Assembly (NCBI GenBank): GCA_029762535.1
Contig: JARVGK010000002.1
Location: 73,603-137,602, forward strand
DNA: 64,000 nucleotides
Reading direction: 5' to 3'
Origin: Thermoplasmatota archaeon
Lineage (GTDB): Archaea; Thermoplasmatota; Penumbrarchaeia; Penumbrarchaeales; Penumbrarchaeaceae
A program made the translations under genes and the position numbers. Within the stretch, counting starts at the first letter, position 1; every line of letters begins with the position of its first letter. This document shows positions 8,280 to 64,000 of this stretch, piece after piece. The notes beneath the pieces are model-generated. The model was not told the DNA's origin, searched no databases, and saw only the letters and a program-made list of their open reading frames with translations.

Positions 8280-8525
8280 CAAGGATGGAGTGGGTGCCAC
8301 CCTCGAAGATCCATGGCCGTGGGTTATCCGATCCGAACGGAGTGATCCATTAGGATAACGGGTGGGGACATGCGACGTTGCCGAAGGCAATGTCCCCCTG
8401 GGCGCAGCGGCCCGCAGGGGCGCGGAGGCGTGTCCGCAAGTTAGACAACCCGAGAGAAGCGAGAGCGCAGTGTGGTCGTGCACCGCATCCGAAGGCGAGG
8501 AGCGCAGAAGTTTCTAATTCTCCTG
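8280..8525. repeat. structured repeat element (island family)
   Basis: Carries GGTTATCCGATCCGAACGGAGTGATCCATTAGGATAACGG, the stem GGGGACAT...ATGTCCCC, and the conserved tail GCGAGAGCGCAGTGTGGTCG...GAAGTTT. Confidence 0.55.
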
Positions 8526-9942: not shown

Positions 9943-10076
9943 ATCTCAACCCCGAGTTGTTCTTCCATCATGATCTCGAACTGCCTTGAGATTAGCAACC
10001 CCTTCTTCTTGCAATGCTCTTTGTATTTGTCGTATAGATCGGAATCCACGCTCAAAGTGACGTTTCTTGACGGCAT
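9939..10076 (-). CDS. ribbon-helix-helix (CopG/Arc-like) small regulator, 45 aa
   Basis: Manual translation: MPSRNVTLSVDSDLYDKYKEHCKKKGLLISRQFEIMMEEQLGVEI. Its TGA overlaps the ATG of the downstream AlbA gene (ATGA). It lies below the 60-aa ORF-track cutoff. Confidence 0.6.
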   Translation of the reverse strand: MPSRNVTLSVDSDLYDKYKEHCKKKGLLISRQFEIMMEEQLGVEI

Positions 10077-17318: not shown

Positions 17319-17319
17319 G

Positions 17320-19326
17320 TTATAACACTCCGTAGAAGCGTTTGTTTATTTCTTTGTCCTCGTCTGATACGCCATAATCCTCGTCATCAATTTCGTTGAA
17401 ATTAACATAAAGCTGATTTTTATCCAGACACTCAATTAGGAATGCCTTTTGGTTCTCCAAGTCCAAGTCCTTGAAATCTTGAGCATTTTCATCGAATTGC
17501 TTCGGATCTATTCTGTAACTAAGGAAAGCTTCTTTTTTCATCTTATCCCATATTGCCAATAAATCTTTTATTGTCTTTGCTTCTTGAATTTTATCCATAT
17601 AGGATTCATTCCATTTCATCAGTTCACAATAAATAAATTCACCACCACCTTCCCACTTTACATATTTTGAGATACCAGATTGATCATAATTTTCAATTTT
17701 CTCTATTAATTTACCCTTTGAGTTTGCATTTCCGATAACATTTTTTAATCTCATAAGCGAATCATTTTTACCATAATCCAATTGTTCTATGCCGAGATAT
17801 TTTCTACCCAACTTATGCGCAACTGCACATGTTGTACCACTACCTAAGAAGAAATCCAAAACAATATCTCCCTTATCAGTTCCCATTTCAATTATTCTCC
17901 TTAAAAGTTTTTCTGGTTTTTTACCACGTTTTAATTTAACATTACCTTCATTAGCAATTCCTTCCCAAGGTATATCCGTCCATATATTTGATAATAAATT
18001 TGTTGGAACGAGATTACCATCAATGTTTCTAACCTTGTTATTATAAAAAGTAATTTCTTTTCCATTTAAGATATATCTATCAGTTAAATTATCTCTTCGA
18101 TTAACAAATACTTTATCCAGATTCTTCAAAGATTCTTCCTTTATGTCTAATGTTTCCTTTCCAGCATCAATGTTTATTTCTGTAAATCGAAAGACTCTTT
18201 CCTTATTATTCAAGGCATAGTCCGCTAATTCAGATAAAGTACGATTTGTTCCTAATTCTTTTTTTAAATATCGACTATTTTTAACCTTAAACTTTTCCGC
18301 AATAATATCTTTAATATTTGAATAAGTCCAATTTGATGGGTTTTCTTCAATATTGTCTATCTGAAATGAATAATTTTCATCATAATTAGTTTCTTCGTAT
18401 TGAGTGATGTACTTCCACAACTTTTTAGACTTTGCATAAATTAATATATATTCGGCACTTTCAAAAACTCCCAAATTTACAGTTTTAAAACCAGACGGAG
18501 ATCGAGTTTTTATACTAATAAGATTAATGAAATTATTATCAAATATTTCATCTAGTAATATTCTTAATCTGGATACATGAATGTCGCTAATTTGAATGAA
18601 AATGGCCCCATCCTTACATAGTAATTCTCGTGCAATTTCTAATCTGTTTTTCATAAATGTAAGCCATGTTGAGTAGTTAAAACTATCATTATACTGAAAC
18701 TCATCATTCCCTGTATTGTAGGGAGGGTCAATGTAAATTAATTTAATTTTTCCAGCATATCTTTTTTTCAATGAATGCAAAGCAAGGAGATTATTACCTT
18801 TAATCATGATATTATCTGTTGTTTTAATTTCTTCTATGTTATGCTCTCCTTTTGCATCAATCCGTTTTAAACCAGTCAATACTTTAGGATCGAATAATCT
18901 GTCAATCTCATCAGGAGCAAGAATTTCATTCCAAAATATTTCTTTGCGATTTTTTTCTTCGGGATCTTCCATTCCGCCTTCCAAAACGCAATCTTTGTAT
19001 GGCCAGGATAGAACCACTTCACTACTTTTTGTTAGGTATTCGTTTTGTGTTGTAAGTCCAATCTTGTTTTTGAAAGTGGTGTACGAATCTGGTAAGAATT
19101 CTTTGTTATCAACGAATTTCATGAATTTTTCTTTGTCAAAAATGATTGCTTTATTTACAATTTTAAAGAAATGCACTTTTAATTTTTCGTTTTCAAGAAG
19201 GAGGGAAATCAGCTCATCATCGAGTTTAAGACCAAGTTCGATTATTTTATTTTTCAATAATTTATCATCTGAAACTAAACGTTCATCCTTTTTTAATGTG
19301 TCAATCATTTCATCAATTAACGTCAT
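17320..19326 (-). CDS. Type III R-M DNA methyltransferase (Mod; beta-class N6-adenine/N4-cytosine MTase)
   Basis: 668 aa. Catalytic motif IV IDPPYNTGND precedes motif I FFLGSGTT, the beta-class order typical of Type III Mod. Its start overlaps the upstream ATPase stop (ATGA). Confidence 0.7.
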   Translation of the reverse strand: MTLIDEMIDTLKKDERLVSDDKLLKNKIIELGLKLDDELISLLLENEKLKVHFFKIVNKAIIFDKEKFMKFVDNKEFLPDSYTTFKNKIGLTTQNEYLTKSSEVVLSWPYKDCVLEGGMEDPEEKNRKEIFWNEILAPDEIDRLFDPKVLTGLKRIDAKGEHNIEEIKTTDNIMIKGNNLLALHSLKKRYAGKIKLIYIDPPYNTGNDEFQYNDSFNYSTWLTFMKNRLEIARELLCKDGAIFIQISDIHVSRLRILLDEIFDNNFINLISIKTRSPSGFKTVNLGVFESAEYILIYAKSKKLWKYITQYEETNYDENYSFQIDNIEENPSNWTYSNIKDIIAEKFKVKNSRYLKKELGTNRTLSELADYALNNKERVFRFTEINIDAGKETLDIKEESLKNLDKVFVNRRDNLTDRYILNGKEITFYNNKVRNIDGNLVPTNLLSNIWTDIPWEGIANEGNVKLKRGKKPEKLLRRIIEMGTDKGDIVLDFFLGSGTTCAVAHKLGRKYLGIEQLDYGKNDSLMRLKNVIGNANSKGKLIEKIENYDQSGISKYVKWEGGGEFIYCELMKWNESYMDKIQEAKTIKDLLAIWDKMKKEAFLSYRIDPKQFDENAQDFKDLDLENQKAFLIECLDKNQLYVNFNEIDDEDYGVSDEDKEINKRFYGVL

Positions 19327-21803
19327 TTCTTTTCCTCCTTATTATTCGAAATTAAATTCCAGTTTACGCTTCCACAATTACATCTTACGCCACTTTGTTT
19401 CATTCCATCTGCTGTAATTTTCAATATACCACCACAACTATGACATGAAAAGAGATAATATAAATCTTGAAATGCCTCTTTTATAGGTCGAAAGTCTTTA
19501 TCACTAAAGTTTATCCAATTATTAAAATGAACGTTTGCATTAATTCCCCATTGTTCAGCATATGTGCGTTTATAAATGCTAGAACGCATTGAATCTAATT
19601 CTTCAAATTTTGCCGTCTTTTCTGATTTTTCCCAGGAAACTGATGATTTTTTAGCCTTTTTAATTAAGTCCTTATATCCATCCATTAATGGTATTGTAAA
19701 ATCACCAAGATCTAGCTGGCCGTTTAATTTGTATCGTACTCGTATCTGTAATGAATCACACACTAGCCCAAAATACTCTTCCAAACCGCGTCTTAATCTC
19801 GAAGCAGCAGAAGGAACATCGTTTCTTGTCAAATCTTCTTCAATTTTACTCCAGAGGTCTGCTTGAAGATTTACTTGAGGCCCTGTATCAACTTTCCAAT
19901 TATAGAATTCAACCATGCAACTCTTATTATCAACAACTCCTTCACTTCTCATTTGATTAGCCCATGTCTTATCATGGGTTGTGATTAAAAATTGTCTGTT
20001 TGGGAAATTTGATGCAAGCACGCGACAAATATCTCGCCTATGATTCGAATCCACAGACATTATTACATCATCTAAGATAATGAGGTCAATAAGACCTTCT
20101 GCCAAACGTTCAGATAGAGCCAAATATAAACAAAGCCCCATACTATCTTGATGACCTTCACTGTGGAGGGCTTGTGGAGAAAAAGCCCCTCGGCCATAAA
20201 AATCAACTTCAAATTTTAATGCCGCCCCATCTGGTGAAATAGTCGCGGAAAAATCTTTTTCGTCTGAACCATGTAATTCTTTATATAATTGCACAAAGCG
20301 ATCATTTACATCTTTGTAAAGATTTCCCAATATAGTATCTCTGGAATATTCAAATGTATTTAACAATATCTCTGCTTTTTTATATGAGATACTTGCGTTT
20401 TTAAAATCATTTTTTGCTTTTTCAAGACCTTTTAAATTTTCTTCAAGGCGTGTTAATGTATCCCACGCAGTTTGTTCAGGGGTTATCGGTGGCGCTTTGG
20501 TTTTAACAATTTCTATTAGAGTTTGAAGATTTTGTTTAATTTCCTCAGAAATAAGCATGTGTTTTACTCTGTCGCTATCAAATTCGATCAATGGATATTT
20601 TTCGAGTGGATTAGCTAATGCTATGGATAACTGATTCAAATCTGACGAACATGTTTTCAATTGGATGCTCCATTCCTTTTCCTCAATTTTATTTAATACC
20701 TCAATTATTTTATTTATGCTTCCTCTTGTATTGTTCACACGCTTTGATATGGAATCGGACAAAGATGTAATTCTGTTTCTTTGTTGTGATATTTCTTCAA
20801 TATCAGTCAATTTTGAGGTAAGATATTCATCTAATTTACCGCTTGGCCACTGTGTATCACACAATGGGCAGTTACCCGTGTCATCGATCATAGATTTTCC
20901 AAGTTCAATTAATTGAAATCGATTGTATGTTTTCAATAATTTCGGATTCGATTTTATAGAGTTTAGAAGATTTCTAAGTTCTTTATCAAATTCAATGATT
21001 CCTTTTTGATTCTTTTCGTCAAAGGAATTATGAATATTTTGAATATCTTTTTCAAATATAGTAAGATTGACATGATTGTCGTTGATAATACTGGTAGGTG
21101 GCGTAAGGGCCTTTTTTAACGTATCTGAAGAAACCGAATTCAATTCATTACTTTTTAATGTTTTACGTAATTGATTTACGTAATCCAGTAGCATCTTTTC
21201 ATTAAATGATGTTGTTTGAATTGTTGCGTTAACCTCACCTTTTTTCTCATCTATTGCTTCTTCTTTTGTCTGCTTTTCTCTTTTAAAAGTATTTTCAATA
21301 TTTACAAATGCTTTTCTTATTATTTCAATGTCTGATATATTTAATAATGCTTGAATCTCCTGGGCACGTGTACTACCATCAGAGGTAATATATTTTAAAA
21401 TTTCTCGTCTTGTTAATACATGTTCTCCCCTCGATGCAAGGGATAAAATGGGTTCAAGATTAGGTAAATATTTTTCATCAGATACAACTAACTTAGTGGG
21501 TTGTGCCATATCTCTTTTTATTTCAATAGGAACATTAATTTTTGGAAATTGAATAACTGCACGTACAATAGCATCTTTTGGCTTGTGATCAATATGTGGG
21601 CCACATTCTTTCAATTTGATATTGCGAGTTCCCTCTCCCTTTAAACGAGAAATTCGACCTGTTAAGAGGAAATCAATGGCATCAACAACAGCACTTTTCC
21701 CTGAACCATTTGGCCCCCATATTACTATATTTTTTCCTTGGGGCGTTAGTTTTATATGGGTTATACCCCGCACATTTTCAATTTCAAGCTCAATCAGTTT
21801 CAA
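19323..21803 (-). CDS. SMC/RecF-like ABC ATPase with long coiled-coil insert and C-terminal Zn-ribbon
   Basis: 826 aa. Walker A GPNGSGKSAVVDAI. Signature-like SEGHQDSMGL. Walker B LIILDDV. H-loop TTHD. C-terminal CHSCGG...RCNCG. Confidence 0.65.
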   Translation of the reverse strand: MKLIELEIENVRGITHIKLTPQGKNIVIWGPNGSGKSAVVDAIDFLLTGRISRLKGEGTRNIKLKECGPHIDHKPKDAIVRAVIQFPKINVPIEIKRDMAQPTKLVVSDEKYLPNLEPILSLASRGEHVLTRREILKYITSDGSTRAQEIQALLNISDIEIIRKAFVNIENTFKREKQTKEEAIDEKKGEVNATIQTTSFNEKMLLDYVNQLRKTLKSNELNSVSSDTLKKALTPPTSIINDNHVNLTIFEKDIQNIHNSFDEKNQKGIIEFDKELRNLLNSIKSNPKLLKTYNRFQLIELGKSMIDDTGNCPLCDTQWPSGKLDEYLTSKLTDIEEISQQRNRITSLSDSISKRVNNTRGSINKIIEVLNKIEEKEWSIQLKTCSSDLNQLSIALANPLEKYPLIEFDSDRVKHMLISEEIKQNLQTLIEIVKTKAPPITPEQTAWDTLTRLEENLKGLEKAKNDFKNASISYKKAEILLNTFEYSRDTILGNLYKDVNDRFVQLYKELHGSDEKDFSATISPDGAALKFEVDFYGRGAFSPQALHSEGHQDSMGLCLYLALSERLAEGLIDLIILDDVIMSVDSNHRRDICRVLASNFPNRQFLITTHDKTWANQMRSEGVVDNKSCMVEFYNWKVDTGPQVNLQADLWSKIEEDLTRNDVPSAASRLRRGLEEYFGLVCDSLQIRVRYKLNGQLDLGDFTIPLMDGYKDLIKKAKKSSVSWEKSEKTAKFEELDSMRSSIYKRTYAEQWGINANVHFNNWINFSDKDFRPIKEAFQDLYYLFSCHSCGGILKITADGMKQSGVRCNCGSVNWNLISNNKEEKK

Positions 21804-21993
21804 GTTCTTCCCTCGAAGTAGTTTTTAATACGCTGATAATTTTTTTAGTATCAGCTAATTGTCCTGTTGAATTAAGTTCACGAAGCTTATTGATGGTCAC
21901 CACATTAAATTCATCTTTATCATTGAGGTCTGAAAACATTTTATCAAGTATGTGGTCAATCAATGAAGATGTTTGTATTGTTTCGGGAGTCAT
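21790..21993 (-). CDS. small 67-aa protein, function unknown (operon partner)
   Basis: ORF MTPETIQTSSLIDHILDKMF.... Its ATG overlaps the RHH TGA (ATGA), and its 3' end overlaps the ATPase start by 14 nt. Confidence 0.45.
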   Translation of the reverse strand: MTPETIQTSSLIDHILDKMFSDLNDKDEFNVVTINKLRELNSTGQLADTKKIISVLKTTSREELETD

Positions 21994-22130
21994 TTATTTA
22001 CCTCCTTCATCTGTTCTTCCATCATAATTTCAAATTGTCGGGATATGAGCCACCCCTTCTTCTTACAGAATCCTTTGTATCGTTCGTAAAGGTCTTCATC
22101 AACACTGAGGGTTACGTTCTTTGAAGGCAT
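21990..22130 (-). CDS. ribbon-helix-helix small regulator, 46 aa (third paralog)
   Basis: MPSKNVTLSVDEDLYERYKGFCKKKGWLISRQFEIMMEEQMKEVNK. Confidence 0.55.
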   Translation of the reverse strand: MPSKNVTLSVDEDLYERYKGFCKKKGWLISRQFEIMMEEQMKEVNK

Positions 22131-22161
22131 GATAATCACATTCATCTCCAAATGTCAGCAA

Positions 22162-22174
22162 ATGTATATAAGTA
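22162..22174 (-). promoter_or_regulatory. putative TATA box for the RHH-ATPase-Mod-Res operon
   Basis: Minus-strand CTTATATAC about 35 nt upstream of the RHH ATG. Confidence 0.3.
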
Positions 22175-22189
22175 TTCGCTTTTTCCGTT

Positions 22190-22620
22190 TCTATTCGTTG
22201 TTCGGAACACCCCCCACGTCCATAGAGTAAGAAAAAATTTGGGTATTCGCTTTGCGAATCCGTTTAACATCCGTTAGCCGAGAGTCTGGACTTGTCCAGA
22301 TTTTGGTGGTTCTTTCCGTCTTGTTTCCGTTAAACGAAGGCAACAACGTCATGAATTTACGGTCTCCTTTTCATAGGCATGGTTTCAAATTGAAGATAAC
22401 GGAACGCGGGTATGCGAAGTGAATATGTTTCCAGTGCGGTTCCTCAGCAGAGTATTCATTTGGGAGAGCGAGTGCAACGAAGCGAACCGCATACCCGCGT
22501 GTTAAGTCCTCCGAATGAAGTTATCCTACGGATAACGAAATGAGAATGCAATGAGATCGAGCACCGCAGACCGTTAGGTTGAGGAGCGGAGAAGTTGGCC
22601 AGCCAAGAACGTTGTTCGGG
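22190..22620. repeat. structured repeat elements (two units)
   Basis: 22200-22330: AAAATTTGGGTATTCGCTTTGCGAATCCGTTTAACA. 22390-22620: GATAACGGAACGCGGGTATGCGAAGT...CATTTGGGAGAGCGAGTGCAACGAAGCGAACCGCATACCCGCGTGTTAAGT. Followed by GAAGTTATCCTACGGATAACGAAATG and the tail ...GAGCGGAGAAGTTGG. Confidence 0.6.
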
Positions 22621-22832
22621 ACACGGTGGATTTTTTACTACCAATCTACCCCACAAGGGTTATAGGTCGAGGGTGTCTTGCTTGTAAGTCGAGGGGTTTG
22701 AAATACTTGTCAAACCAAGATTTGACCATGGCGAGGTTTACTATCTTTTGGGTTATCGTTCTGACCATTATTATTTTAGAGTTGCAATATGATTTGTTCA
22801 AATTTTCTGATGAATTCGTAAGTAAAAGAGAT

Positions 22833-25800
22833 TCAATCCTCCTCCTTTATTGGTTTGATGGTTCGAAGGTTCAAAGAAAAAGATCGCCCCTCGATATTTT
22901 CTTCTGGGATATCATCATATCTCGTTATAATAACCTTATCATCAACTTTATCACTGAGGTTTTCCACATTCCATAACTCCCATCGATCCCCACCTTCTTC
23001 CTGACTTAAAAGGAATTCCACATATTCCCTAGAGGTTATGTTTACAATTTTGGAAGAACCTAAATGTGCCTTGACTTCGATCTTAATTTGTTCTCTATCA
23101 CGAATAGCAATGATATCATAGCCTGGATTCTGTTTGGGCATTTGTTCAACTTCGAATCCTTTTAATTCTAACTCTCTTTGAGCAAATGATCTTCCTTTAG
23201 TTTCTATCATCTCATTGTCCTCATATGATGTTCTGTTCCCAGATTTGCCACCACCACCGCCACCAGATGAACCCTTAGTTTCCTCATCAACTCTCTCCTC
23301 TGTATTAACTTCATATTCAGAGTCGTCATCCTTTAATTGAATACCTTCATCTTCCTCTGAATCTGGAGTTCTTTCTTCTCTATTTTGCTCATCAAGTAAT
23401 TTTTCCTTATTGTCTTCTTCACTTTTTGTCGGTTGTTTCGGCTTTTTAGGAAGCATACCAGGAAATGGCTTCTTCGATGGTGGAGTTGACTTTTGTTGAT
23501 CAGAGTCTTTGTGTTTTACATAGTCGTTATTGAATTCTAAAAAAGAGATATCGATCTGTTCATCTGATATTCCGCTGGAAGTCAATTTTTCTCGTCTTTC
23601 GTAATCATTATTACACCTTAAAAGATTTTCATAAGTGTCGGCTTCTCCTGGCACTCCTAAATAAAACGATATTGATCGAGATATTGTAGTTACACTTTGT
23701 TTATCTTCACTTATGAATATTGTTGAACCAACAATGTAAAAATCTCCGGATATTTCGGTTTCATACTTATCAAGTAGTATCAATTTTTTTCGAATTTCCT
23801 TTTTTACTTTAACTTTGATATTTTTAATTCTTTGAATCAATTTCTGATGATCTGATAGTTTATCCGATCTTATCACATATATGTATGAAAGACTGTCAAT
23901 TAGATTTTTCGCCAATTCCGGTTTCAATTGTTTCTCATCATCATTTGTCTCAATTATTTCTTCCTTCAATATATTCTTATCACTAATTTGACGTTTTCCA
24001 AAATACTTACTTACAAACTGGTGATATCTTCTAGATATATTGAAAAAATAAACATCATTATTAAAAGCATTTTTAATCTCCACATCATCATTAATGAATA
24101 TCTCTTTGCTACTTATAATTTGAAATATATTGCTTCTTTCACATAAAAGGGGACAATCATGAAGCAATAATTCAGGAAGTGCTACCATCAAACTATTTGT
24201 TGTATCTAAACATCTTTCGTAGATTTTCATTATTTTGAATCTTAATTCTCGATTATCATTTATATCTTCATCTGAAATGAATTTTATTAATAGGTTGGAT
24301 AATATTTCTTTCCATTCTTCAGGTTTTAATTCATCAATATTTGTTCTAATAATTTTCACTTTATTCTTTAACCAATGAAAAATATTATCCTTTGAACTCT
24401 CAAAAAGATTTAAATTGATAACTGGTAATAAATACCCTATTTCAAAATTATCTTTTTCATTTAATATCCAACATTCTTCCAATGGTTTAGGATCTAGATA
24501 ATGTGTAAGAGGAGGTATGAACTTTGTTTTTAAATCAAACCACCATGATGCATCTGAGTTTCCATAATATAATGCTCTGTTGTATGGTCGATAGTGTACT
24601 CGAATATTCATATATTCTTCATAGTATTCCCAATTGTTTGCTATTAACTTTAATAAGGATATTTTAGATTTTTCAGGCAATTCGTCTAAATTTATTTTAT
24701 CAAATCTTTTATTATAACTGATTTTTTCAACATTATTATAATCTTCATTCACATGTATCGGAATTTCTTCTGTAGAAATTAATCGGGGAAATGTTTTACA
24801 CCCTAACCATCTTAAGATATCTTGATCAATTATTTTCTCTAAGCTATTGTTTTCTTTTTGTACCCATTGTATATCGTAATGATTGCGAAATAATGAGTTC
24901 AAATCACTATTGCCCCATTCTTTTCCCATATATCCAAATTTGGCTTTTATCCATATAACATCTTTTTTCCCCTTCCTTCTAGATGGAATTGGACAATTTC
25001 TAATTCCTACGGGTGCATTTTCTTCTTTCATCAACCATTTATTTTTATAGATATATCGATAATATATTGAGGGATTATCTTTTTGATTCTTGTTCCTACT
25101 ATCCCAATAATTCTCAATAGCTTTAATTAAAGCTTTTTCTGTAACATTTTCAATTCTCTCTACACCCAATGTTGCTAGGATTTTGTTGACTGAATGATGG
25201 TTTTCCAATAACTTATCCCCAAACCATTCATCAACAAACACTATCGGCATCCATTTAGGTACGAGATTTTTCTTGTCTTGATCAGATTTCCAAGTGATGA
25301 TTTGACCCTTTGAATTGGCAATTGATATCAGATGATTACCAACAGGAAGTATTGGTAGACTTTTTATAATCTCAATTTTCTCCTCTTCATTGATTTCATC
25401 TGAATCATGATTAGCCCAATTAGAGAGCCATTTCCAACAAGTCCAAATCCAATCAATATTTCCTGTATTTTTAGATGACTCTTCATTGATTACACTTAGT
25501 AACGTATTATCATCAATCAAACTGCAGTTCATGGATTTTAAAACGTTATATGAAACTTCATTCTCCTCATAACTGAAATGTAACAAGTTGTCACTAATAT
25601 TTGATGTATTTAAAATTTTACGGGCGTTTGTCAAATCACATGTTGTTGATATAAGCTTTATATCAGAGAAATTTAATAATTTTTCTCCATTAATATTGCC
25701 GAATTTTAAAGTGTTCTTTGAATAATCAACAATCACATCCCAAAATAATTTGGTGATTTCATGACTGTTTCTCTCCTCAAATGGTGATAACAATGTAATA

Positions 25801-26930
25801 TTATTTGCTGGATCACCTTTTAAATATTGCTCATCCACAAATTCAACTAATGTATGAACGAGATTATCCATTATCCATTTATTTAGATTATTATTCTCTA
25901 TCGGAAGAATTTCCGTTCTATCACTTTTTACAAAAAAATCCGCATGAAGAAGTATTGGAACTGGGGAGTAGTGTTTTGTCGGATAATACACATGGATTTT
26001 TGGGTAATCGGTCATAGATCTGATTTTACCATCAATGACATATGTACCAACCAGGAAATTAATTCCATCTTCGATAATTCTCGCATTATCTTCTTTATCA
26101 AGGTTAGATAAGAAATAAGGTGGAATCATATCACCCGACATCGTTTTTCGTTTGATTTTCCATTTCGTTACATCTTCAACGCCATCAATGGTATCATTGA
26201 TTACATTTTCCTTATCTATTGTTATTTTCCTTAAGGTTTTACTTGAACCAACAGCATCAATTATCTCCAACATTCTAATATGATGAAATGTTAGGAGAGT
26301 ATAATTTTTCAATGAAATTTTATCAAATAATACTTCGTTATCAATTTCCTCAAGATAATTCAATTTAACTACAGTTGACCAATCCGATTGAGAGGTTAGA
26401 TATTGATCATTCAAAGAAATATCATCCCAGGATATCGAAAAAGGGATCCATTGATATGGTACATCATCATCTGGAAAACCATTATTTTGTAACCATTGTT
26501 TCGCCTTTTCAAATGAGAATTCTACTCCCTCTCCTCCTATGCTAAATATTTGTGGATTATTTGAAATCTCATAAACAGCTTTGAATCCTAATCCCTTTCT
26601 TCCGATGGTCCCAGATTTTTTAATTGAATAATCCGTTCCACACAAAGATTCAATAGCATCTGGCTGTAATCCTACTCCCTTATCCAAGATATAGACCGAT
26701 TTATCGGTCAACAAAACCTTTACCTCTTTAGATTCTGCATCATCACAATTTTGGAATAATTCGTAAAACCATCGTCCAGTGTGGTCAGAAGTTACTCTTT
26801 CTGCACTTCTTGTGTCTCTGATGATTCGTTTGGGATCTCCTTTATATGTCCCTTGTAATTTTTGGTTGAATAAATCAATTGCCTTTTTAATAGGTTTCAA
26901 TATACTATCACCATCGACATACACAATCAT
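22833..26930 (-). CDS. 1,365-aa protein: N-terminal sacsin/Hsp90-like GHKL ATPase domain, long middle region, Gly-rich linker, C-terminal DUF3883-like (PD-(D/E)xK-fold) domain
   Basis: N-terminus FYELFQNCDDAESKEVKVLL and GRKGLGFKAVYEISNNPQIFS match the sacsin-repeat ATP-binding signature. C-terminus is GSSGGGGGGKSGN followed by NPGYDIIAIRDREQIKIEVKAH (the EVK motif of DUF3883). Very AT-rich. Confidence 0.6.
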   Translation of the reverse strand: MIVYVDGDSILKPIKKAIDLFNQKLQGTYKGDPKRIIRDTRSAERVTSDHTGRWFYELFQNCDDAESKEVKVLLTDKSVYILDKGVGLQPDAIESLCGTDYSIKKSGTIGRKGLGFKAVYEISNNPQIFSIGGEGVEFSFEKAKQWLQNNGFPDDDVPYQWIPFSISWDDISLNDQYLTSQSDWSTVVKLNYLEEIDNEVLFDKISLKNYTLLTFHHIRMLEIIDAVGSSKTLRKITIDKENVINDTIDGVEDVTKWKIKRKTMSGDMIPPYFLSNLDKEDNARIIEDGINFLVGTYVIDGKIRSMTDYPKIHVYYPTKHYSPVPILLHADFFVKSDRTEILPIENNNLNKWIMDNLVHTLVEFVDEQYLKGDPANNITLLSPFEERNSHEITKLFWDVIVDYSKNTLKFGNINGEKLLNFSDIKLISTTCDLTNARKILNTSNISDNLLHFSYEENEVSYNVLKSMNCSLIDDNTLLSVINEESSKNTGNIDWIWTCWKWLSNWANHDSDEINEEEKIEIIKSLPILPVGNHLISIANSKGQIITWKSDQDKKNLVPKWMPIVFVDEWFGDKLLENHHSVNKILATLGVERIENVTEKALIKAIENYWDSRNKNQKDNPSIYYRYIYKNKWLMKEENAPVGIRNCPIPSRRKGKKDVIWIKAKFGYMGKEWGNSDLNSLFRNHYDIQWVQKENNSLEKIIDQDILRWLGCKTFPRLISTEEIPIHVNEDYNNVEKISYNKRFDKINLDELPEKSKISLLKLIANNWEYYEEYMNIRVHYRPYNRALYYGNSDASWWFDLKTKFIPPLTHYLDPKPLEECWILNEKDNFEIGYLLPVINLNLFESSKDNIFHWLKNKVKIIRTNIDELKPEEWKEILSNLLIKFISDEDINDNRELRFKIMKIYERCLDTTNSLMVALPELLLHDCPLLCERSNIFQIISSKEIFINDDVEIKNAFNNDVYFFNISRRYHQFVSKYFGKRQISDKNILKEEIIETNDDEKQLKPELAKNLIDSLSYIYVIRSDKLSDHQKLIQRIKNIKVKVKKEIRKKLILLDKYETEISGDFYIVGSTIFISEDKQSVTTISRSISFYLGVPGEADTYENLLRCNNDYERREKLTSSGISDEQIDISFLEFNNDYVKHKDSDQQKSTPPSKKPFPGMLPKKPKQPTKSEEDNKEKLLDEQNREERTPDSEEDEGIQLKDDDSEYEVNTEERVDEETKGSSGGGGGGKSGNRTSYEDNEMIETKGRSFAQRELELKGFEVEQMPKQNPGYDIIAIRDREQIKIEVKAHLGSSKIVNITSREYVEFLLSQEEGGDRWELWNVENLSDKVDDKVIITRYDDIPEENIEGRSFSLNLRTIKPIKEED

Positions 26931-27252: not shown

Positions 27253-28053
27253 ATGAATGTTTCCGAAAAGGGCAGGGAGAGAATGCTGGCTCGGCTGGAT
27301 GAGGAGATGAGGCTTCGGAAGTATTCGCCTGCGACAATGAAGCAGTATCTCGGATTCATCAAGAGGTTCCTTGATTCCGGATCCGATCCCCGGAGCTTCA
27401 TGCTGGGTCTCTCCGACAGATGCTCACGATCCACGGTCCGATCCGCTTACTTCTCCCTGACGTTCTTCTATCGATATGTCCTTCATCAACCCTTCGACGA
27501 GGGGATCCCCCTCGCAAAGCGCGGTGGGAGGCTTCCAACGGTACTCAATCGCGAAGAGGTCCATTCCATGATCGATAGCGCCGTGAACGTTAAGCACAAG
27601 GTCCTGCTGATGCTTCTGTATTATGGTGGCCTAAGGCTCAGCGAGGCTCGATCCCTGCGCTGGGAGGGTCTCGATTTCGAACGGGGGATCATCCATATAA
27701 AGCACGGGAAGGGGGATCGGGATCGGGTCGTCTTTCTCCATTCCAGGCTTGCAGAGGCGCTTTCCGTATTGGGGGTTAAAAGCGAAGGTTGCGTATTGAT
27801 CTCTTCGGTCTCCAAAGGAGCCTATACACCAAGGGGTATCCAGTTGACTGTCGCGGATATCGCTAAACGGGCGGGGATAAAAAAGAGGGTCAGTCCCCAT
27901 ACGCTTCGGCACAGCTTCGCGACCCATCTCCTTGAGGCCGGGGCTGACGTCAGGCACATACAGAAGCTTCTGGGGCACAGGAACCTGTCGACAACACAAG
28001 TATACACCCACATCGCCGACCGGGAAATGATCAGGATAGTTTCCCTGCTCTGA
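27253..28053 (+). CDS. tyrosine-type site-specific recombinase (Xer/XerA-like)
   Basis: 266 aa. R..., HTLRHSFATHLLEAGADVRHIQKLLGH, and the catalytic Y in STTQVYTHI. No IntI-type extra domain. GC is like the host. Confidence 0.75.
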   Translation: MNVSEKGRERMLARLDEEMRLRKYSPATMKQYLGFIKRFLDSGSDPRSFMLGLSDRCSRSTVRSAYFSLTFFYRYVLHQPFDEGIPLAKRGGRLPTVLNREEVHSMIDSAVNVKHKVLLMLLYYGGLRLSEARSLRWEGLDFERGIIHIKHGKGDRDRVVFLHSRLAEALSVLGVKSEGCVLISSVSKGAYTPRGIQLTVADIAKRAGIKKRVSPHTLRHSFATHLLEAGADVRHIQKLLGHRNLSTTQVYTHIADREMIRIVSLL

Positions 28054-48368: not shown

Positions 48369-49197
48369 ATGGGATCCAAATCCCTATCGTCAATTTCTAG
48401 TGTTACATCAATGAGTGTTACTTTGATGAGAAGATGTTGGTGCTCCCGACGGAACCTTTGGATCGTCCTCACATTGACGGGAAATCAGATCCAAAGGTTC
48501 AGGAAAATGCCCAACGGGCATTTTTCGTATAAAAGCAATGTTAAGCATCCATTTCCGGGAACTTTACTATTTGACGGAAGGAAATGGATGAGAGAAGGGA
48601 GCACACTTGTAAGCAATGAAGATGTTGGTGCTCCCGACGGAATTTGATGCTTGGAAAGTCACCTGTGACTTTCCGCATCTCGCGAGATGCTGATCGTCAA
48701 ATAGAGATACGCATCTCACGAGAACCCGGACTGGTCAGTGATCAATTGGTGGGATTCAAATCCCTACCGTCAAATCCTAGCGTTACATCAAGGGGTATTA
48801 CATCTATGATAAGATGTTGGTGCTCCCGACGGAACCTTTGGACTGTCCATAATATGACGATAATTCAAGTCCAAAGGTCCAGGAAAATGCCCAACGGGCA
48901 TTTTTCGTATAGAGGCAATGTAAAGCATCCATTTCCGGGAACGGTAATATTTGACGGAAGGAAATGGATGCGAGAAGGGAGCACACATCTAAGCAATGAA
49001 AAATTTGGTGCTCCCGACGGAATTTGATGCTTGGAAAGTCACCTGTGACTTTCCGCATCTCGCGAGATGCTGATCGTCAAATAGAGATACGCATCTCACG
49101 AGAACCCTGACTGGTCAGTGATCAATTGGTGGGATTCAAATCCCTACCGTCAAATCCTAGCGTTACATCAAGGGGTATTACATCTATGATAAGATGT
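48369..49197. repeat. tandem repeat array (A 188 bp + B 192 bp) x2 in front of tRNA-Glu; each unit begins with the tRNA 3' end (TGGTGCTCCCGACGGAA)
   Basis: Unit starts at 48438, 48626, 48818 and 49006, then the tRNA at 49198. Unit B holds perfect palindromes GCATCTCGCGAGATGC and GGAAAGTCAC-CTG-TGACTTTCC, plus a T-arm-like GGGATTCAAATCCC. Unit A holds the hairpin AAAATGCCCAACGGGCATTTT. Confidence 0.8.
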
Positions 49198-49273
49198 TGG
49201 TGCTCCCGACGGAATTTGAATCCGTGTCGCTGGCTCGAGAGGCCAGCATGATTGGCCACTACACTACGGGAGC
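49198..49273 (-). tRNA. tRNA-Glu (anticodon CUC), CCA encoded
   Basis: Minus strand: GCTCCCGTAGTGTAGTGGCCAATCATGCTGGCCTCTCGAGCCAGCGACACGGATTCAAATCCGTCGGGAGCACCA. Anticodon stem CTGGC/GCCAG, loop CTCTCGA, T-arm ACGGA-TTCAAAT-CCGT. Confidence 0.75.
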
Positions 49274-49333: not shown

Positions 49334-50998
49334 TCACTTGCCTTTGACCTTGGCCCAGGTGTCCCTCAGCGTTATGGTCCTGTTGATCACGAGCCTGTCG
49401 GGATCGCTGTCCGGATCGATGCAGAAGTAACCTAACCTCTCGAACTGGAAACGTGAGAGATGTGGAAGCTTCCCGACGATCTGCTCCACCTTGCACCCCT
49501 TGAGGACCTTCAGCGAATCATGGTCGATATACTCTGTGAAGTCCCCGGGCATCGAGAGGGGATCCTCAACCGTGAATAACTTGTCATACTGCCTCACCTC
49601 GGCATCGATCGCATGTTTGGCCGACACCCAGTGCAGGGTGGACCTCACCTTCCTGCCGTCAGGGGCATCCCCTCCCCTGGAGGCGGGATCCACCTTGCAC
49701 ACTATCTCTTTCACCTCGCTCCCGTCCTTGACCACATTCGTGCAGGTGACGAGATACGCGTTCCTCAGCCGGACCTCCCTTCCTGGAGCCAGCCTGTAGA
49801 ACTTCGGGGGTGGGTCCTCCATGAAATCCTCCCTTTCGACATACACCTCGCCTGAAAAAGGGACCTTCCTCCTGCCAGCGGATGGGTCCTCGGGATTGTT
49901 GATGACATCCATCTCGTCCTCCCCTTCGTAGTTCTCGATCCTCATCAGCAGGGGGTCAAGTACGCCCATGTAGCGGGGAGACGTCCTGTTCAGGTCCTCC
50001 CTGACGGCGTGCTCCAGCGTCTCTATGGCGATCGTGGAGTTAATCTTCGCGACGCCTATCCGGGAGCAGAAATCCCTGATGGACGCGGGAGAGTAACCTC
50101 TTCTTCTCATACCGCTTATCGTGGGCATCCTGGGGTCGTCCCAGCCGGATACCAGCTTCTTCCGGACCAGTTCCAGGAGCTTCCTCTTGGACATGACGGT
50201 GTATGTCAGGTTAAGCCTTGCGAACTCTATCTGCTGGGGATGATATATCTCAAGTTCGTCCAGGAACCAGTCGTAGAGCGGCCTGTGGTTCTCGAACTCC
50301 AGAGTGCATATCGAATGGGTGATACCTTCTATCGAATCCTCCAACCCATGAGCCCAATCGTACATGGGATAGATGCACCATTCGTCCCCGGTGTTGTGAT
50401 GCGTCGAGTGCAGGATGCGGTACATGACCGGATCCCTCATGTTCATGTTGGGATGCGACATGTCGATCCTGGCCCTCAGGACCTTCTCTGCGTCCCTGAA
50501 CTCCCCTTTTCTCATCCTCTCGAACAGCTCTAAGTTCTCCTCAGTGCTCCTGTTCCTGTACTCGCTCTCTATTCCAGGGGCTGTCAGCGAACCTCTCATT
50601 CTGGATATCTCATCGGCGGTATGGTCATCGACGTAGGCCTTGCCCTTCTTGATCAGGTCCACTGCCCATTTATACATCTGCTCGAAGTAATCCGAGGCGA
50701 AGTACAGCCTTTCCTCCCAGTCGAAACCCAGCCATCTCACGTTATCCTTGATCGAACTGACGTATTCCTCCTCCTCCTTGGCGGGGTTGGTGTCGTCGAA
50801 GCGCAGGTTGCATTTTCCCCCATATTCCCCTGCGATCCCGAAGTTCAGGCAGATCGACTTCGCATGCCCTATGTGCAGGTATCCGTTGGGTTCGGGCGGG
50901 AACCTGGTATGTATCCTCCCATCGAACCTGCCCGAGGCGTTGTCCTCGTCTATGATCTCCCTTATGAAGTCCTTCGGGACCATTTTTTCCTCGACCAT
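49334..50998 (-). CDS. glnS: glutamine--tRNA ligase (GlnRS), bacterial/eukaryotic type
   Basis: Signatures: [23 protein letters not shown] (HIGH), [42 protein letters not shown] (KMSKS), [17 protein letters not shown], and the C-terminal anticodon-binding RLGYFCID. Collinear with E. coli GlnRS as recalled from memory. Confidence 0.8.
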
Positions 50999-51135
50999 TA
51001 CGGGTCACCAGTACAGCTAATGCCATGGTACTAATTATATCTGTCAATCGTCGAGTGGGGATTTTGAATAAAGGTCCGAACAATAACCCTGCCGCACAGC
51101 CAAGTATTTATCCCTTGATGTTCGCTCCGGGTCCG

Positions 51136-51975
51136 ATGAAAAGGCTTCGTGGCATGCTCTCCATAATCAGGCCCGAGGACTGTGCCATAAGCTCGATCGC
51201 GGTGTGGGTTGGCCTCGCTGTGTCCTCGAGGAGATTGGTCCCTTCAAGACCCCTGCCGCTATTGATGTGGGGCTTGTCCACGTTCTTCCTTGTGGCGGCC
51301 CTGAACATACTTAACGACATGGGGGATCTCGAGATCGATCGGATGATACACGAGAAGAGGGCACTTGCTTCAGGGAGGATCTCTCTGAGGCTGACCGAGA
51401 GATACCTCCTGGGAGTGATATTGGCCTCGCTCTTATTCGCTTTTATCGGAGCGATGGTCGGAAAGAGCGCTCTGCCCATGCTCATATACATCATCGGTTT
51501 GGGACTGGGATTGTTATACGAGATCAAACTCAAGCGGTTGGGGTTCCTGGGCAACATCGCCATTGCGGTGCTTTTCGCTTTCCCCCTCCTTCTGGGAGGA
51601 TCCCTCGAGAGGATCACACTGCTTCTCGTCATACTATGCTCCATGGCGGTCGTCAACGGGCTTGCAAAAGAGGTGATCAACGACGTCAAGGACCTCGAGG
51701 GGGATAGGGGAAAGAGGCCCACTCTACCGCAGTGGATCGGGGTGAAGCCATCGTTGTCCATCGCAGGGACCCTGATCATGGCGACTGTGGGTATGAGCAT
51801 ACTGCCTTTGACATTCGTTGGATGGAGCATATCCTACATCATCCTGATCTCCATCTGCGATGCGATCCTGCTATCGGTCATCGTACTTTCCTTCAGGAGG
51901 CCGATGCTGGCGCATAACGTTCACAGCCTGGGGATGCTCGCATCACTTCCAGCCTTCCTCTCGCTTTCGATCTGA
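51136..51975 (+). CDS. UbiA-family prenyltransferase (possibly a DGGGP-synthase-like archaeal lipid enzyme)
   Basis: Asp-rich NDMGDLEIDR and a second DVKDLEGDR, with 8-9 TM helices. The ORF runs from 51025. Confidence 0.6.
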   Translation: MKRLRGMLSIIRPEDCAISSIAVWVGLAVSSRRLVPSRPLPLLMWGLSTFFLVAALNILNDMGDLEIDRMIHEKRALASGRISLRLTERYLLGVILASLLFAFIGAMVGKSALPMLIYIIGLGLGLLYEIKLKRLGFLGNIAIAVLFAFPLLLGGSLERITLLLVILCSMAVVNGLAKEVINDVKDLEGDRGKRPTLPQWIGVKPSLSIAGTLIMATVGMSILPLTFVGWSISYIILISICDAILLSVIVLSFRRPMLAHNVHSLGMLASLPAFLSLSI

Positions 51976-52027
51976 GTAGGATTTGATCTTCCTCCAGTTC
52001 GAACTGGTCGGTTTAATTATAATGTAA

Positions 52028-52399
52028 TGGTAGCCCCGCTAAAATTTCCCCGAAATTTTAGAACACAAGAAAACGGATCCCCACCCCGAAAGAGGCTATG
52101 ATTGTGCAGCCACTATTCCATATAGCCTTCACATTAATAGAGATGGAATAGTGGTAGCCCCGCTAAAATTTCCCCGAAATTTTAGAACACAAGAAAACGG
52201 ATCCCCACCCCGAACATGGCTATGATTGTGCAGCCACTATTCCATATAGCCTTCACATTAATAGAGATGGAATAGTGGTAGCCCCGCTAAAATTTCCCCG
52301 AAATTTTAGAACACAAGAAAACGGATCCCCACCCCGAAAGAGGCTATGATTGTGCAGCCACTATTCCATATAGCCTTCACATTAATAGAGATGGAATAG
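52028..52399. repeat. 3 x 124-bp tandem repeats in front of tRNA-Gln, each starting with the tRNA 3'-terminal 11-mer (TGGTAGCCCCG)
   Basis: Copies start at 52028, 52152 and 52276, then the tRNA at 52400. Copy 2 differs by GAACATGG versus GAAAGAGG. A T-arm-like CCAGTTCGAACTGGTCGG sits in the opposite orientation at about 51997. Confidence 0.8.
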
Positions 52400-52475
52400 T
52401 GGTAGCCCCGACCAGATTCGAACTGGTGACAAGAGATCCAGAGTCTCCTATGCTAGACCGCTACACTACGGGGCT
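52400..52475 (-). tRNA. tRNA-Gln (anticodon CUG), CCA encoded
   Basis: Minus strand: AGCCCCGTAGTGTAGCGGTCTAGCATAGGAGACTCTGGATCTCTTGTCACCAGTTCGAATCTGGTCGGGGCTACCA. Anticodon stem GGAGA/TCTCT, loop CTCTGGA, T-arm ACCAG-TTCGAAT-CTGGT. Confidence 0.75.
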
Positions 52476-57430: not shown

Positions 57431-57889
57431 TCAGGCGAGGATCATGGCCAAGCCTTCGGCTGGCCTGATACATTCCACTTTGCATCTGTCGGATCTGTCG
57501 ATCTCGCTCTTCAAGGGTCCATCCTGGGAAACGATCGGTCTGTCGAAGAACCTTGCTATCGGAAGAAGGAACCGATCCTTTTGGTTGATATCTAAGAAAT
57601 CCAGATGATGTTCCGATCCTTCGCCGCAAACATCCTCGGGACAATATTCAATTCTATCGGAATCGATCAGGACCCTCTTTATCACTTTGAAGAAGTTGAT
57701 CTGGGAATAATCTTTACCCAGTTCCTCCAAATGACCCCAATACCTCCTGTACAGTTTCTCATTCAAACAGAATATCGATCTCGACATGATGAATTCTTTC
57801 ATGAAAGGCGATGAATCCCCTTCGTCCTTGACGAAGAATATGATCACGTTCTCGTCGATGACAAATTGACATTTTGCCAAATCGATCAC
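57431..57889 (-). CDS. small partner protein of the AAA ATPase (TOPRIM-like / DUF4276- or RloB-like?)
   Basis: 152 aa. Acidic IIFFVKDEGDS near the N-terminus. Its start overlaps the ATPase stop (ATGA). AT-rich. Confidence 0.4.
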   Translation of the reverse strand: MIDLAKCQFVIDENVIIFFVKDEGDSSPFMKEFIMSRSIFCLNEKLYRRYWGHLEELGKDYSQINFFKVIKRVLIDSDRIEYCPEDVCGEGSEHHLDFLDINQKDRFLLPIARFFDRPIVSQDGPLKSEIDRSDRCKVECIRPAEGLAMILA

Positions 57890-59202
57890 TGGTCCCCGAA
57901 GAAATCCTTCATCTCCAAAAGATCGGCTTCGAAGAAACCGGGAAGGCCTCCCTTGACCATACCCCGATCGTTTATCTCCACATTTGAGGTTCTAACAGCG
58001 CCGTCTTTCATTTCAAAATAGATGATGGCCACATCCTCTTTCTTAAGTTCTCCACGGGAGATGGATGAAAGTATCGGATAGATCATGTGTTCGGAATGCG
58101 TCGAGAAAATGATCTGCTTGTTCTCATCCTTCCAGACTTTGATGAACAATTTCATCAGGTCCGATTGTGTCCTCGGATGAAGATGGATCTCCGGCTCCTC
58201 GATCAATATCGTATCCAACTCATCGGACAAGGCGATGGGGATGAGCATATGCAGCATCTGCTGGGATCCCAGCCCTTCGTTTATCAGCAAATTGTTCTTA
58301 TCTGATCTGATCTTCAAAATCGACCTCTTGTCACCGACCAGTTCCGCATATACATCGATCTCCAGTAGCTCCTTGAACCATCTGGATATCTTGTCAGCGA
58401 CATCCTTATTCGAAAGCATCATGGCGGATATTATCTTTGATCTGATATCGAGTTCCAGGTATTCCGTTCTTTCCTTGCTCCACCCGTTTATCAATTCCTG
58501 CGTATGTGTCTCGAAACCTCTGATCCCATAAATGAACGTCCATGAACGAACAAGATTTTCAAACAATCCAAGCATCTGTTTTGCCATGTGAGAATATCGC
58601 TTTTCATCATTTCTATCCGGAACCTTAACATTATAATGGTTGGTCGGCCTCAGGAAATTTGGAGAATAGAATAAGACAATATCAACGTCACTATTTTGGA
58701 CGGTTATATTCATGTTAGGGTCGTTCAAAGCATCCTTGTTTCTTATGTCAATGATATATTCATTGTCCATTTTTCCGTAGTAATCACATTTTGTTATCTT
58801 CAATTCTTCATCGAACTCATAAAATACCTCTGAATAACCTTCTTTGAACCCTATTCTCTTGCTGATGGTGTCTTTGATCAAAGCATTACCCTTGATTTCG
58901 ATCGAGATCCCTCTCAGAATATCATTTATCATATCCTGCGGTTTTGAACCAAGGTCGACCAGCCTTGACAAACTATCATTCGTATTCTCACTGAATGATC
59001 CTTGGTCCATTGAATACAACACTTCTTTGTTCAAGTACAATTTTTCCTTGAACAGGAGAAGTAACTGAAAAATAGTGGATTTCCCCGAATTGTTCGGCCC
59101 TATGAAAACGGTGATCGGTTTGAGATCGAGATCCGTATCCGCATGTGCCTTGAAGTTCTTTACCGCGAGTTTTGTCAGCACACCGATCACCAGTTCAGGC
59201 AT
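57886..59202 (-). CDS. AAA_21/OLD-type ABC ATPase (defence-associated)
   Basis: Walker A GPNNSGKSTIF. Walker B and H region LIEEPEIHLHP and FSTHSEHM. AT-rich. Confidence 0.6.
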   Translation of the reverse strand: MPELVIGVLTKLAVKNFKAHADTDLDLKPITVFIGPNNSGKSTIFQLLLLFKEKLYLNKEVLYSMDQGSFSENTNDSLSRLVDLGSKPQDMINDILRGISIEIKGNALIKDTISKRIGFKEGYSEVFYEFDEELKITKCDYYGKMDNEYIIDIRNKDALNDPNMNITVQNSDVDIVLFYSPNFLRPTNHYNVKVPDRNDEKRYSHMAKQMLGLFENLVRSWTFIYGIRGFETHTQELINGWSKERTEYLELDIRSKIISAMMLSNKDVADKISRWFKELLEIDVYAELVGDKRSILKIRSDKNNLLINEGLGSQQMLHMLIPIALSDELDTILIEEPEIHLHPRTQSDLMKLFIKVWKDENKQIIFSTHSEHMIYPILSSISRGELKKEDVAIIYFEMKDGAVRTSNVEINDRGMVKGGLPGFFEADLLEMKDFFGDQ

Positions 59203-63079: not shown

Positions 63080-64000
63080 ATGCTAATGGTCACAACATGG
63101 TACGGCACCTTCCTGTTAGAAGGGGATGCACGTTCGGTGGTATCGTTCTCGGGCGCGGGAAAGGAACCGTCATCCATCGCCGAGGACCTGTCAGTGATCT
63201 CATCCGGCGGGATCCTCCCCAGGGAGAGGGAGCTTGCTCTAACGAACGAACTAACCCTCGTCGCCGAGGAGAGGCTAAGGGCGCTATCCCCCTCGGCGCT
63301 GTTGTTCAACGTCTCGAACCTGGACATACCCGGCCCCCTGGAGAAGGGTTACGGGTTCGATCTCCTGACCGGGGCGAACCTCATTCTCGCCGGAAGACGA
63401 AATGACATGATCGACGATCAGAGAGTTCTGTCTCTGGTGGGGGCGCTAACGGACATCGACACCTCCTCGAACCTCCTGGAGGAGAGGATAACCGAGTGGC
63501 TGTCCAAGACCTGGGAGGCCCCGGCCTCCCATCTCAGCGATGGCGGAGTGATGGCATCCCTATCCGGTTCCGGGACCTTCGGCGAGTTCCTCACCGCTTT
63601 GAAGGAAGTGAACGCGGACCTGTACCGGCCCCTATCCGTAGCCTGCCCCGATCCCGAAATATCCCTAGAGGGGATCGGCGCTTTAGCCTCCTCCCTGTTG
63701 GAGCTGAGCTCTGCAAGGGAGCGCATACAGGGGCTCATCGACGATGAGATGGGATCGATTGCCCCCAACCTCAAGGCGGTAGTGGGTCCCATCATCGGAG
63801 CGAGGCTCATACACAGTGCGGCAGGTATCAAGAGGCTGGCGATGCTGCCCTCATCGACGGTGCAGGTGCTCGGGGCCGAGAAGGCATTCTTCAGGTTCCT
63901 CAAGGAGGGCGGTAGGCCTCCCAAGCACGGGATACTGTTCCAGCACCCTGCAATCCATTCCGCCAGGAAGGACCTGCGAGGCAAGATCGCCCGCACCATG
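63080..64000 (+). CDS. Nop5/Nop56-family box C/D snoRNP protein, 3'-truncated by the window end
   Basis: Manual translation from the ATG at 63080 (GGAGGGGAG RBS-like upstream): MLMVTTWYGTFLLEGDARSV...LGAEKAFFRFLKEGGRPPKHGILFQHPAIHSARKDLRGKIARTM. This is the NOP-domain signature. No stop occurs before position 64000. Confidence 0.7.
   Translation, partial: MLMVTTWYGTFLLEGDARSVVSFSGAGKEPSSIAEDLSVISSGGILPRERELALTNELTLVAEERLRALSPSALLFNVSNLDIPGPLEKGYGFDLLTGANLILAGRRNDMIDDQRVLSLVGALTDIDTSSNLLEERITEWLSKTWEAPASHLSDGGVMASLSGSGTFGEFLTALKEVNADLYRPLSVACPDPEISLEGIGALASSLLELSSARERIQGLIDDEMGSIAPNLKAVVGPIIGARLIHSAAGIKRLAMLPSSTVQVLGAEKAFFRFLKEGGRPPKHGILFQHPAIHSARKDLRGKIARTM

Follow-up and report, generated by a model that had tools for sequence, protein, structure and literature searches.

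A bacterial-type glutaminyl-tRNA synthetase gene within an archaeal tRNA gene cluster of Thermoplasmatota

How does a gene for glutaminyl-tRNA synthetase (GlnRS) come to lie between archaeal tRNA genes, and what does its product do there? It has been stated that no archaeal genome encodes GlnRS (PMC5388404, 2016; PMC9499178, 2022) or that almost all archaea are without it (PMC8762117), and reviews have treated this absence as an anomaly, explained by an archaeal tRNA-Gln that GlnRS is unable to read and locked by co-evolution with the amidotransferase GatDE (PMC9499178; PMC8762117; PMC5388404). The gene considered here, glnS, lies in a stretch of 64,000 nucleotides (nt; positions 73,603 to 137,602 of JARVGK010000002.1, hereafter the window) on a 137.6-kb contig from a metagenome-assembled genome (MAG) of Thermoplasmatota (proteins MDG6224079 to MDG6224125). 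The explanation put forward, to which a probability of about 0.85 is given as a whole, is that a working GlnRS of bacterial derivation would charge the archaeon's own tRNA-Gln, the gene having been acquired long ago and inherited vertically since.

Identity and ancestry of the enzyme

On every sequence criterion tested the window protein is a bacterial-type GlnRS, and neither a GlnRS/YqeY fusion nor an archaeal glutamyl-tRNA synthetase (GluRS). It scores 716.3 bits against TIGR00440, the NCBIfam equivalog model of glnS (cut-off 425.8), and falls below the cut-offs of the archaeal GluRS models TIGR00463 (349.5 against 401.75 bits) and NF003169 (312.6 against 516). Pfam recognises tRNA-synt_1c (PF00749) together with both anticodon-binding domains (PF03950 and PF20974), and the class I signature motifs HIGH and MSK are found at residues 42-45 and 269-271. 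In comparisons with PDB structures, Escherichia coli GlnRS scores about 690 bits across residues 3-551, full-length identity being about 56-60%; the scores of eukaryotic GlnRS lie at 412-471 bits, and no GluRS exceeds 272 bits. The original prediction, of a GlnRS with the full motif set and far from archaeal GluRS, is thus borne out. The GlnRS/YqeY fusion model NF011291 is also passed (840 bits, cut-off 681), but it is matched at positions 8-559 of 769 only; the protein ends at residue 554 and the YqeY/GatB-like C-terminal domain is absent. NCBI calls it, like its relatives, a 'glutamine--tRNA ligase/YqeY domain fusion protein', a misleading name in this respect, because the GlnRS core alone passes the NF011291 cut-off.

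A protein search with the window GlnRS gave 8000 scored relatives, of which the best 120 were examined. Nine of these carry organism names, eight being labelled Thermoplasmatota, Thermoplasmata or Methanomassiliicoccales (among them the closed 3.2-Mb genome CP070739.1) and one Planctomycetes. In a neighbour-joining (NJ) tree of 185 sequences the window GlnRS, its 119 closest relatives and the sequence from contig L001 group in a single clade inside the bacterial GlnRS, with Planctomycetota sequences as the nearest outgroup. When 200 bootstraps were run on 96 taxa, the clade including sequences P0078 and P0040 received 89% support. P0078 (Planctomycetes, GCA_016930595.1) lies on a bacterial contig that encodes MlaD/E, SecG, YicC and RpoZ. 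Judged from this tree, glnS is of bacterial ancestry, a Planctomycetota-like donor is the best guess, and a single ancestral transfer would account for the clade.

The residues expected of an active GlnRS have been maintained throughout the clade. Those of the E. coli glutamine pocket (R30, Y211, C229 and Q255) correspond to R32, Y213, C231 and Q256 of the window enzyme, the readers of anticodon positions U35 and G36 (R341, Q517 and R402) correspond to R342, Q518 and R402, and R410 is likewise conserved. All of these are invariant in the 118 clade members compared, as are, in E. coli numbering, E34, the HIGH motif, D66 and S269-K270, while Leu136 is kept in 106 of the 118. Between the window gene and a 97%-identical relative the ratio of nonsynonymous to synonymous substitution (dN/dS) is 0.07; glnS is under strong purifying selection and its active site is intact. 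At the position of E. coli Asp235 the window enzyme has Asn (N237), as do 105 of the 118 clade members. We take Asp235 of E. coli GlnRS to be the reader of the G3:C70 pair, and D235N to be a mischarging variant of relaxed specificity. The D235N protein of E. coli is itself among the structure matches to the window enzyme (PDB 1QRS). The possibility that Asn237 is an archaea-specific adaptation was considered and is ruled out by the presence of Asn in a quarter of bacterial GlnRS and in all sampled Planctomycetota; it may rather have been a pre-adaptation in the donor lineage than an archaeal innovation.

The glnS locus and its tRNA partners

A tRNA-Gln gene adjoins glnS in eight of the nine archaeal lineages sampled, as compared with 3 of 79 bacterial loci. 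The distance is within about 300 nt on contigs L001, L082, L085, L090, L091 and L092. It reaches 1.4 kb in the window strain, as originally predicted and as now placed by ARAGORN and Rfam, with a gene for a UbiA-family prenyltransferase intervening; this gene stands between tRNA-Gln and glnS only in the sub-lineage of the window and is not at that position in L085 or L091. Its true start is probably near 51118, and other assemblies call a protein of 285 amino acids (aa). Five of the archaeal lineages also have a tRNA-Glu gene after glnS. In the window this is a tRNA-Glu(CUC), not listed in the original prediction, that lies 60 nt downstream of where glnS stops; a TTTATAAA box, situated about 40 nt upstream of this tRNA gene, would be its own promoter. 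L090 has two different tRNA-Gln(CUG) genes, one on each side of glnS (9987-10057 and 11797-11869), and in L092 a tRNA-Gln(UUG) is linked to glnS besides the CUG isoacceptor.

The upstream tRNA-Gln of L090 overlaps the called start of a 590-aa glnS product, and this start has probably been mis-called. On L001, a Thermoplasmatota contig, the tRNA-Gln lies upstream of glnS on the opposite strand and a 5S rRNA gene (7806-7927) is found about 600 nt downstream of glnS.

The wider gene order is shared between the window and the contigs L085 and L091, of 353 kb and 73 kb respectively, and comprises Nop5/Hel308, a hydrolase, ABC-MacB/FtsX, a class II aldolase, tRNA-Gln, glnS and tRNA-Glu. Between the window and L085 the GlnRS proteins are 71% identical, as against 64% for the ABC ATPase, 44% for Nop5, 41-43% for MacB/FtsX and 33% for the aldolase; overall, GlnRS is 71-75% identical between genomes whose syntenic neighbour proteins share 33-64%. 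This makes glnS the most constrained gene at its locus. Since the order has been preserved despite such divergence of the neighbours, glnS must have been at this locus before the lineages diverged. The conserved link between tRNA-Gln and glnS is that of a gene that immigrated long ago into a cluster of archaeal tRNAs, and on the simplest reading glnS would have landed in, or stayed within, a tRNA-Gln/tRNA-Glu cluster that already existed.

The archaeal character of the cluster is evident from the tRNA-Gln genes themselves. The window tRNA-Gln(CUG) has A1:U72, G2:C71, C3:G70, G10 and A73. All ten of the glnS-linked archaeal tRNA-Gln genes share A1:U72, G2:C71 and C3:G70, and eight of them have A73, whereas the three linked bacterial genes have U1:A72 and two of these combine G3:C70 with G73. 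A first pair A1:U72 with an A73 discriminator is the archaeal tRNA-Gln pattern of Marck and Grosjean, as cited in PMC9499178. This acceptor end contradicts the earlier proposal that tRNA-Gln had been co-acquired with glnS: the tRNA was not imported together with the enzyme. Glutamine identity in E. coli has been assigned to the anticodon, the discriminator and the base pairs 1-72, 3-70 and 10-25, and Leu136 has been found to matter for the specificity of the E. coli enzyme (PMC9976931). When it is compared with E. coli tRNA-Gln, a weak first pair, G2:C71, G10 and the anticodon are all still present in the window tRNA-Gln, which departs from it at 3:70 and 73.

Two departures from these patterns were found. 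Both glnS-linked tRNA-Gln genes of L092 (CUG and UUG, 9893-9966 and 11761-11832) have G73, despite which they retain A1:U72 and C3:G70; the change may reflect a tRNA adapting to a bacterial-type enzyme, in what is a single lineage. The tRNA-Gln(CUG) beside glnS in the Bacteroidales contig L077 (7727-7800) has A3:U70 and A73, and the GlnRS encoded there has Val235. Bacterial GlnRS as a family are therefore not tied to G3:C70 and G73.

Taken together, a sequence of events can be proposed in which a Thermoplasmatota ancestor of a large uncultured group would have acquired glnS from a bacterium, with Planctomycetota as the nearest, after which the gene would have come to lie in the tRNA-Gln/tRNA-Glu cluster and passed into vertical inheritance. 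The enzyme would charge the archaeon's own tRNA-Gln directly with glutamine. Its anticodon readers (E. coli R341, R402, R410 and Q517) would read C/U34-U35-G36, the Leu136 wedge would open the weak A1:U72 pair as it does U1:A72 in E. coli, and G2:C71, common to archaeal and bacterial tRNA-Gln, would be read alike. Asn at position 235, as in the relaxed D235N mutant and in the Planctomycetota enzymes, should tolerate C3:G70. Both the charging of an A73 tRNA-Gln and this role of N237 are what we infer from the comparison.

Alternative explanations

Several observations weigh against this explanation. The GlnRS of E. coli and yeast have been reported to reject archaeal tRNA-Gln (Tumbula 2000, as cited in PMC9499178 and PMC8762117), and changes of the discriminator and of 3:70 can cost E. 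coli GlnRS large factors in kcat (PMC9976931). Among 65 bacterial sequences 17 also have Asn at position 235, so that it is not archaea-specific, and in one subclade of the archaea, that of L090, the residue is Asp. Only nine of the 120 relatives carry an organism name, and the archaeal core without P0078 and P0040 has a bootstrap value of only 30%. With a distance-based tree, a support of 30% for its core and few named sequences, it is uncertain how many transfers took place and in which direction. Finally, GlnRS could be redundant, with GatDE as well as a GluRS of the non-discriminating type (ND-GluRS) still present, rather than the sole route.

This last point amounts to an explanation in its own right, in which ND-GluRS and GatDE were kept and GlnRS works alongside them as a redundant or specialised second route, for example mainly on the linked CUG isoacceptor or under particular conditions. 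It overlaps with the explanation given above, the GlnRS being a working enzyme in both, and the one point that separates the two is whether other routes exist beside it; we regard this alternative as a distinct possibility, though one held at less than even odds. All ten linked tRNA-Gln genes still have A1:U72, the identity pair of GatDE, but this pair would suit GlnRS equally, for which a weak first pair is needed. The linked isoacceptor is CUG in every lineage, but the UUG tRNA-Gln is also linked in L092. Both routes are kept in some bacteria, according to PMC4206432, and on L091 an archaeal aspartyl-tRNA synthetase of the non-discriminating type (ND-AspRS; 7164-8510, 547 bits against a cut-off of 353) is encoded two genes from glnS, which implies that amidotransferase charging persists at least for Asn; this relative probably still uses an amidotransferase for Asn-tRNA beside direct charging with Gln. 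Against a secondary role, the dN/dS value and the position of glnS as the most conserved gene of the locus suggest that it is essential, and the G73 switch of L092 suggests a tRNA evolving towards GlnRS. The contrasting proposal is that this Thermoplasmatota radiation replaced the GatDE route by an imported GlnRS that accepts A1:U72, C3:G70 and A73, with the cluster co-inherited and tRNA and enzyme co-adapting; this is advanced tentatively. In approximately 260 kb of archaeal sequence none of gatD, gatE and gltX was found, a negative that says nothing on their presence in these genomes. The odds of replacement and of coexistence with GatDE are roughly comparable, with a lean towards GlnRS as the main route on account of the strength of the constraint on glnS.

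A much less probable explanation is that of a mobile module, marked by att-like repeats, in which glnS and tRNA-Gln were recently acquired together by horizontal gene transfer. The bacterial ancestry of glnS and its conserved linkage to the tRNA would agree with such an origin, and the repeats do carry tRNA 3' ends at both tRNAs and vary between 97%-identical strains. The tRNA-Gln is nevertheless archaeal in type, and the composition of glnS is that of its host: its GC content is 0.556, or 0.77 at third codon positions (GC3), and its codon usage correlates with that of pooled host genes (r = 0.84) as does that of its neighbours, whereas a foreign block at 14.7-26.9 kb has a GC content of about 0.32 and a correlation of about 0. 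The 20 kb to either side of glnS are free of integrase and mobility genes; the nearest integrase is 21 kb off, beside another island. A collection of 2.9 million viral contigs held no close relative of the GlnRS, the one match there being unrelated (50% identity, on a 353-kb contig). With synteny extending across deeply diverged relatives, a recent, island-like acquisition is not supported, nor is tRNA co-import, and what survives of the module originally predicted is the bacterial ancestry of glnS by horizontal transfer and the link between the two genes.

The repeats themselves are real. Four exact copies of CGGGGCTACCA, the 11-nt 3' end of tRNA-Gln, recur at 124-nt spacing, and five exact copies of TTCCGTCGGGAGCACCA, the 17-nt 3' end of tRNA-Glu, stand at unit starts with a spacing of 188 or 192 nt; no exact copies of the tRNA 3' ends would be expected by chance. 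The repeat units of both arrays contain hairpins, their number and arrangement differ in the 97%-identical strain, and single extra copies of tRNA 3' ends are present in L085 and L091. Dispersed mobile elements of the MITE (miniature inverted-repeat transposable element) kind and known RNAs were considered as sources and rejected, there being no copies of the units elsewhere in the window and no match in Rfam even at E = 1. As to their reading as att-like sites of a glnS element, they sit as tandem units of 124 to 190 nt downstream of each tRNA, too small for elements; glnS is not enclosed between them, and there is no integrase close by. Either tRNA-targeted integration, of which they would be remnants, or unequal crossing-over may have given rise to them, and they have no bearing on the age of glnS.

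An artefact of assembly or binning, by which a bacterial fragment was joined to or binned with archaeal DNA, is scarcely credible. Such an origin could be argued from bacterial GlnRS that are up to 70% identical and from the one close relative labelled Planctomycetes. The junction of UbiA and glnS, however, recurs in one Logan contig and two ENA scaffolds from a 97%-identical strain, which makes a chimeric assembly very unlikely, and the NCBI contig shares its junctions with two contigs from Logan and two scaffolds from ENA. The gene stands between archaeal tRNAs on a contig of uniform composition. The archaeal genome originally predicted is confirmed by Nop5 at the right end of the window, a Hel308-type helicase and archaeal-type tRNAs; an independent Logan assembly (L089), which extends about 4 kb further to the right, encodes the full Nop5 followed by the Hel308-type helicase with archaeal domain 4 and a presenilin-type protease. 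The gene has comparable archaeal surroundings on six more contigs, one of them the closed 3.2-Mb genome; L085, for instance, has Nop5 and Hel308, and L090 encodes a class I lysyl-tRNA synthetase above cut-off, PurP and a DTD2-type deacylase. As to a repurposed paralogue acting outside translation, for example in tRNA modification or regulation as GluQRS does, the family has such offshoots and gives weak GluQRS matches but nothing speaks for it specifically, and this can practically be dismissed given the full three-domain architecture, the invariance of every glutamine-pocket, ATP-motif and anticodon-reading residue, and scores of at most 67 bits on GluQRS models whose cut-offs are at least 250.

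Table 1. Features of the window at and around glnS
Feature	Position	Strand	Evidence or remark
glnS, 554-aa bacterial-type GlnRS	49334..50998	minus	Open reading frame, NCBIfam, Pfam, structure alignment
tRNA-Gln(CUG), archaeal type, CCA encoded	52400..52475	minus	ARAGORN; Rfam, 59.5 bits
tRNA-Glu(CUC), CCA encoded	49198..49273	minus	ARAGORN, Rfam
UbiA-family prenyltransferase	51025..51975	plus	Profile matches; nearest are archaeal DGGGP-synthase models, below cut-offs
Tandem array, 124-nt period, 3.1 copies, 97% match	52028..52410	minus	Units start with CGGGGCTACCA
Tandem array with a 380-nt period, in which units of 188 and 192 nt alternate	48370..49214	minus	TTCCGTCGGGAGCACCA copies
Nop5, partial, runs off the window	63080..64000	plus	Pfam Nop, 121 bits; archaeal marker

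Two other parts of the window are of separate interest. The foreign block mentioned above is a defence island (14721-26930, with 27253-28053) with a GC content of 0.29-0.38 as against about 0.55 and codon usage uncorrelated with that of the host; a type III restriction enzyme and methylase are encoded in it, as are an LmuB-like SMC ATPase and a TmtA-like protein of 1365 aa, and a XerA-type tyrosine recombinase stands at its right border. A two-gene cassette at 57431-59202 (GC content 0.42) consists of an AriA/NsnB/OLD-like AAA_15 ATPase and a 152-aa partner. The two hydrolase genes on either side of it are immediate neighbours in the 97%-identical strain (L087), and the cassette is therefore a strain-specific defence insertion.

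Significance and relation to known systems

A claim of discovery is limited by the fact that the Prokaryotic Genome Annotation Pipeline (PGAP) already labels these proteins as glutamine-tRNA ligases, and by a preprint of 2024 that mentions an Asgard GlnRS (bioRxiv 10.1101/2024.07.04.601786). In the searchable literature, which leaves subscription journals outside its coverage, there was no report of a Thermoplasmatota GlnRS and nothing on CP070739. A 'GlnRS' listed in a paper on Pyrodictiaceae carries wrong KEGG Orthology (KO) and Enzyme Commission (EC) numbers and is not a GlnRS. What is new here is the Thermoplasmatota GlnRS clade, the conserved tRNA-gene context, the non-canonical tRNA identity set and the G73 switch of L092.

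A resident and constrained GlnRS beside an archaeal-type tRNA-Gln is a concrete counter-example to the view of Archaea as free of GlnRS, and as a natural enzyme-tRNA pair it makes the orthogonality argument directly testable. If GatDE has indeed been replaced, orthogonality of tRNA-Gln would no longer explain the absence of GlnRS from Archaea. This raises the questions of whether GatDE, a signature enzyme of Archaea, is dispensable, whether the archaeal GluRS has turned discriminating in these lineages, and whether a natural GlnRS-tRNA pair with an unusual identity set might be useful for genetic-code engineering.

The nearest well-characterised counterpart is the GlnS of E. coli (PDB 1GTS, 1QTQ and 1O0B), with which the window enzyme has in common the three Pfam domains, the HIGH and MSK motifs, the glutamine pocket, the Leu136 wedge and the anticodon readers. 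It differs in being housed in an archaeon and in having Asn at the position of Asp235, and its partner tRNA has A1:U72, C3:G70 and A73 where that of E. coli has U1:A72, G3:C70 and G73. The Deinococcus-type GlnRS/YqeY fusion (NF011291; PDB 2HZ7) is alike in its catalytic and anticodon-binding core, but the window enzyme is without the YqeY tail. The GlnRS of Planctomycetota (P0078, L002 from Anaerohalosphaeraceae and L015 from Planctomycetaceae) are 62-71% identical, share N235 and branch either next to the archaeal clade or at its base; their glnS genes lie in a bacterial neighbourhood (MlaDE, SecG, RpoZ), and no flanking tRNA genes are present in L002, L015 or L088. The GlnRS of Heimdallarchaeia, which receives a passing mention in the preprint cited above, likewise comes from archaeal MAGs but belongs to a different phylum and is encoded beside coxABC. 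The archaeal ND-GluRS and GatDE pathway yields the same end product on the same type of tRNA (A1:U72, A73), although archaeal GluRS is only a distant homologue of the window enzyme (3AII, 185 bits); in place of that pathway, GlnRS is predicted to offer charging with glutamine in one step, without an amidotransferase.

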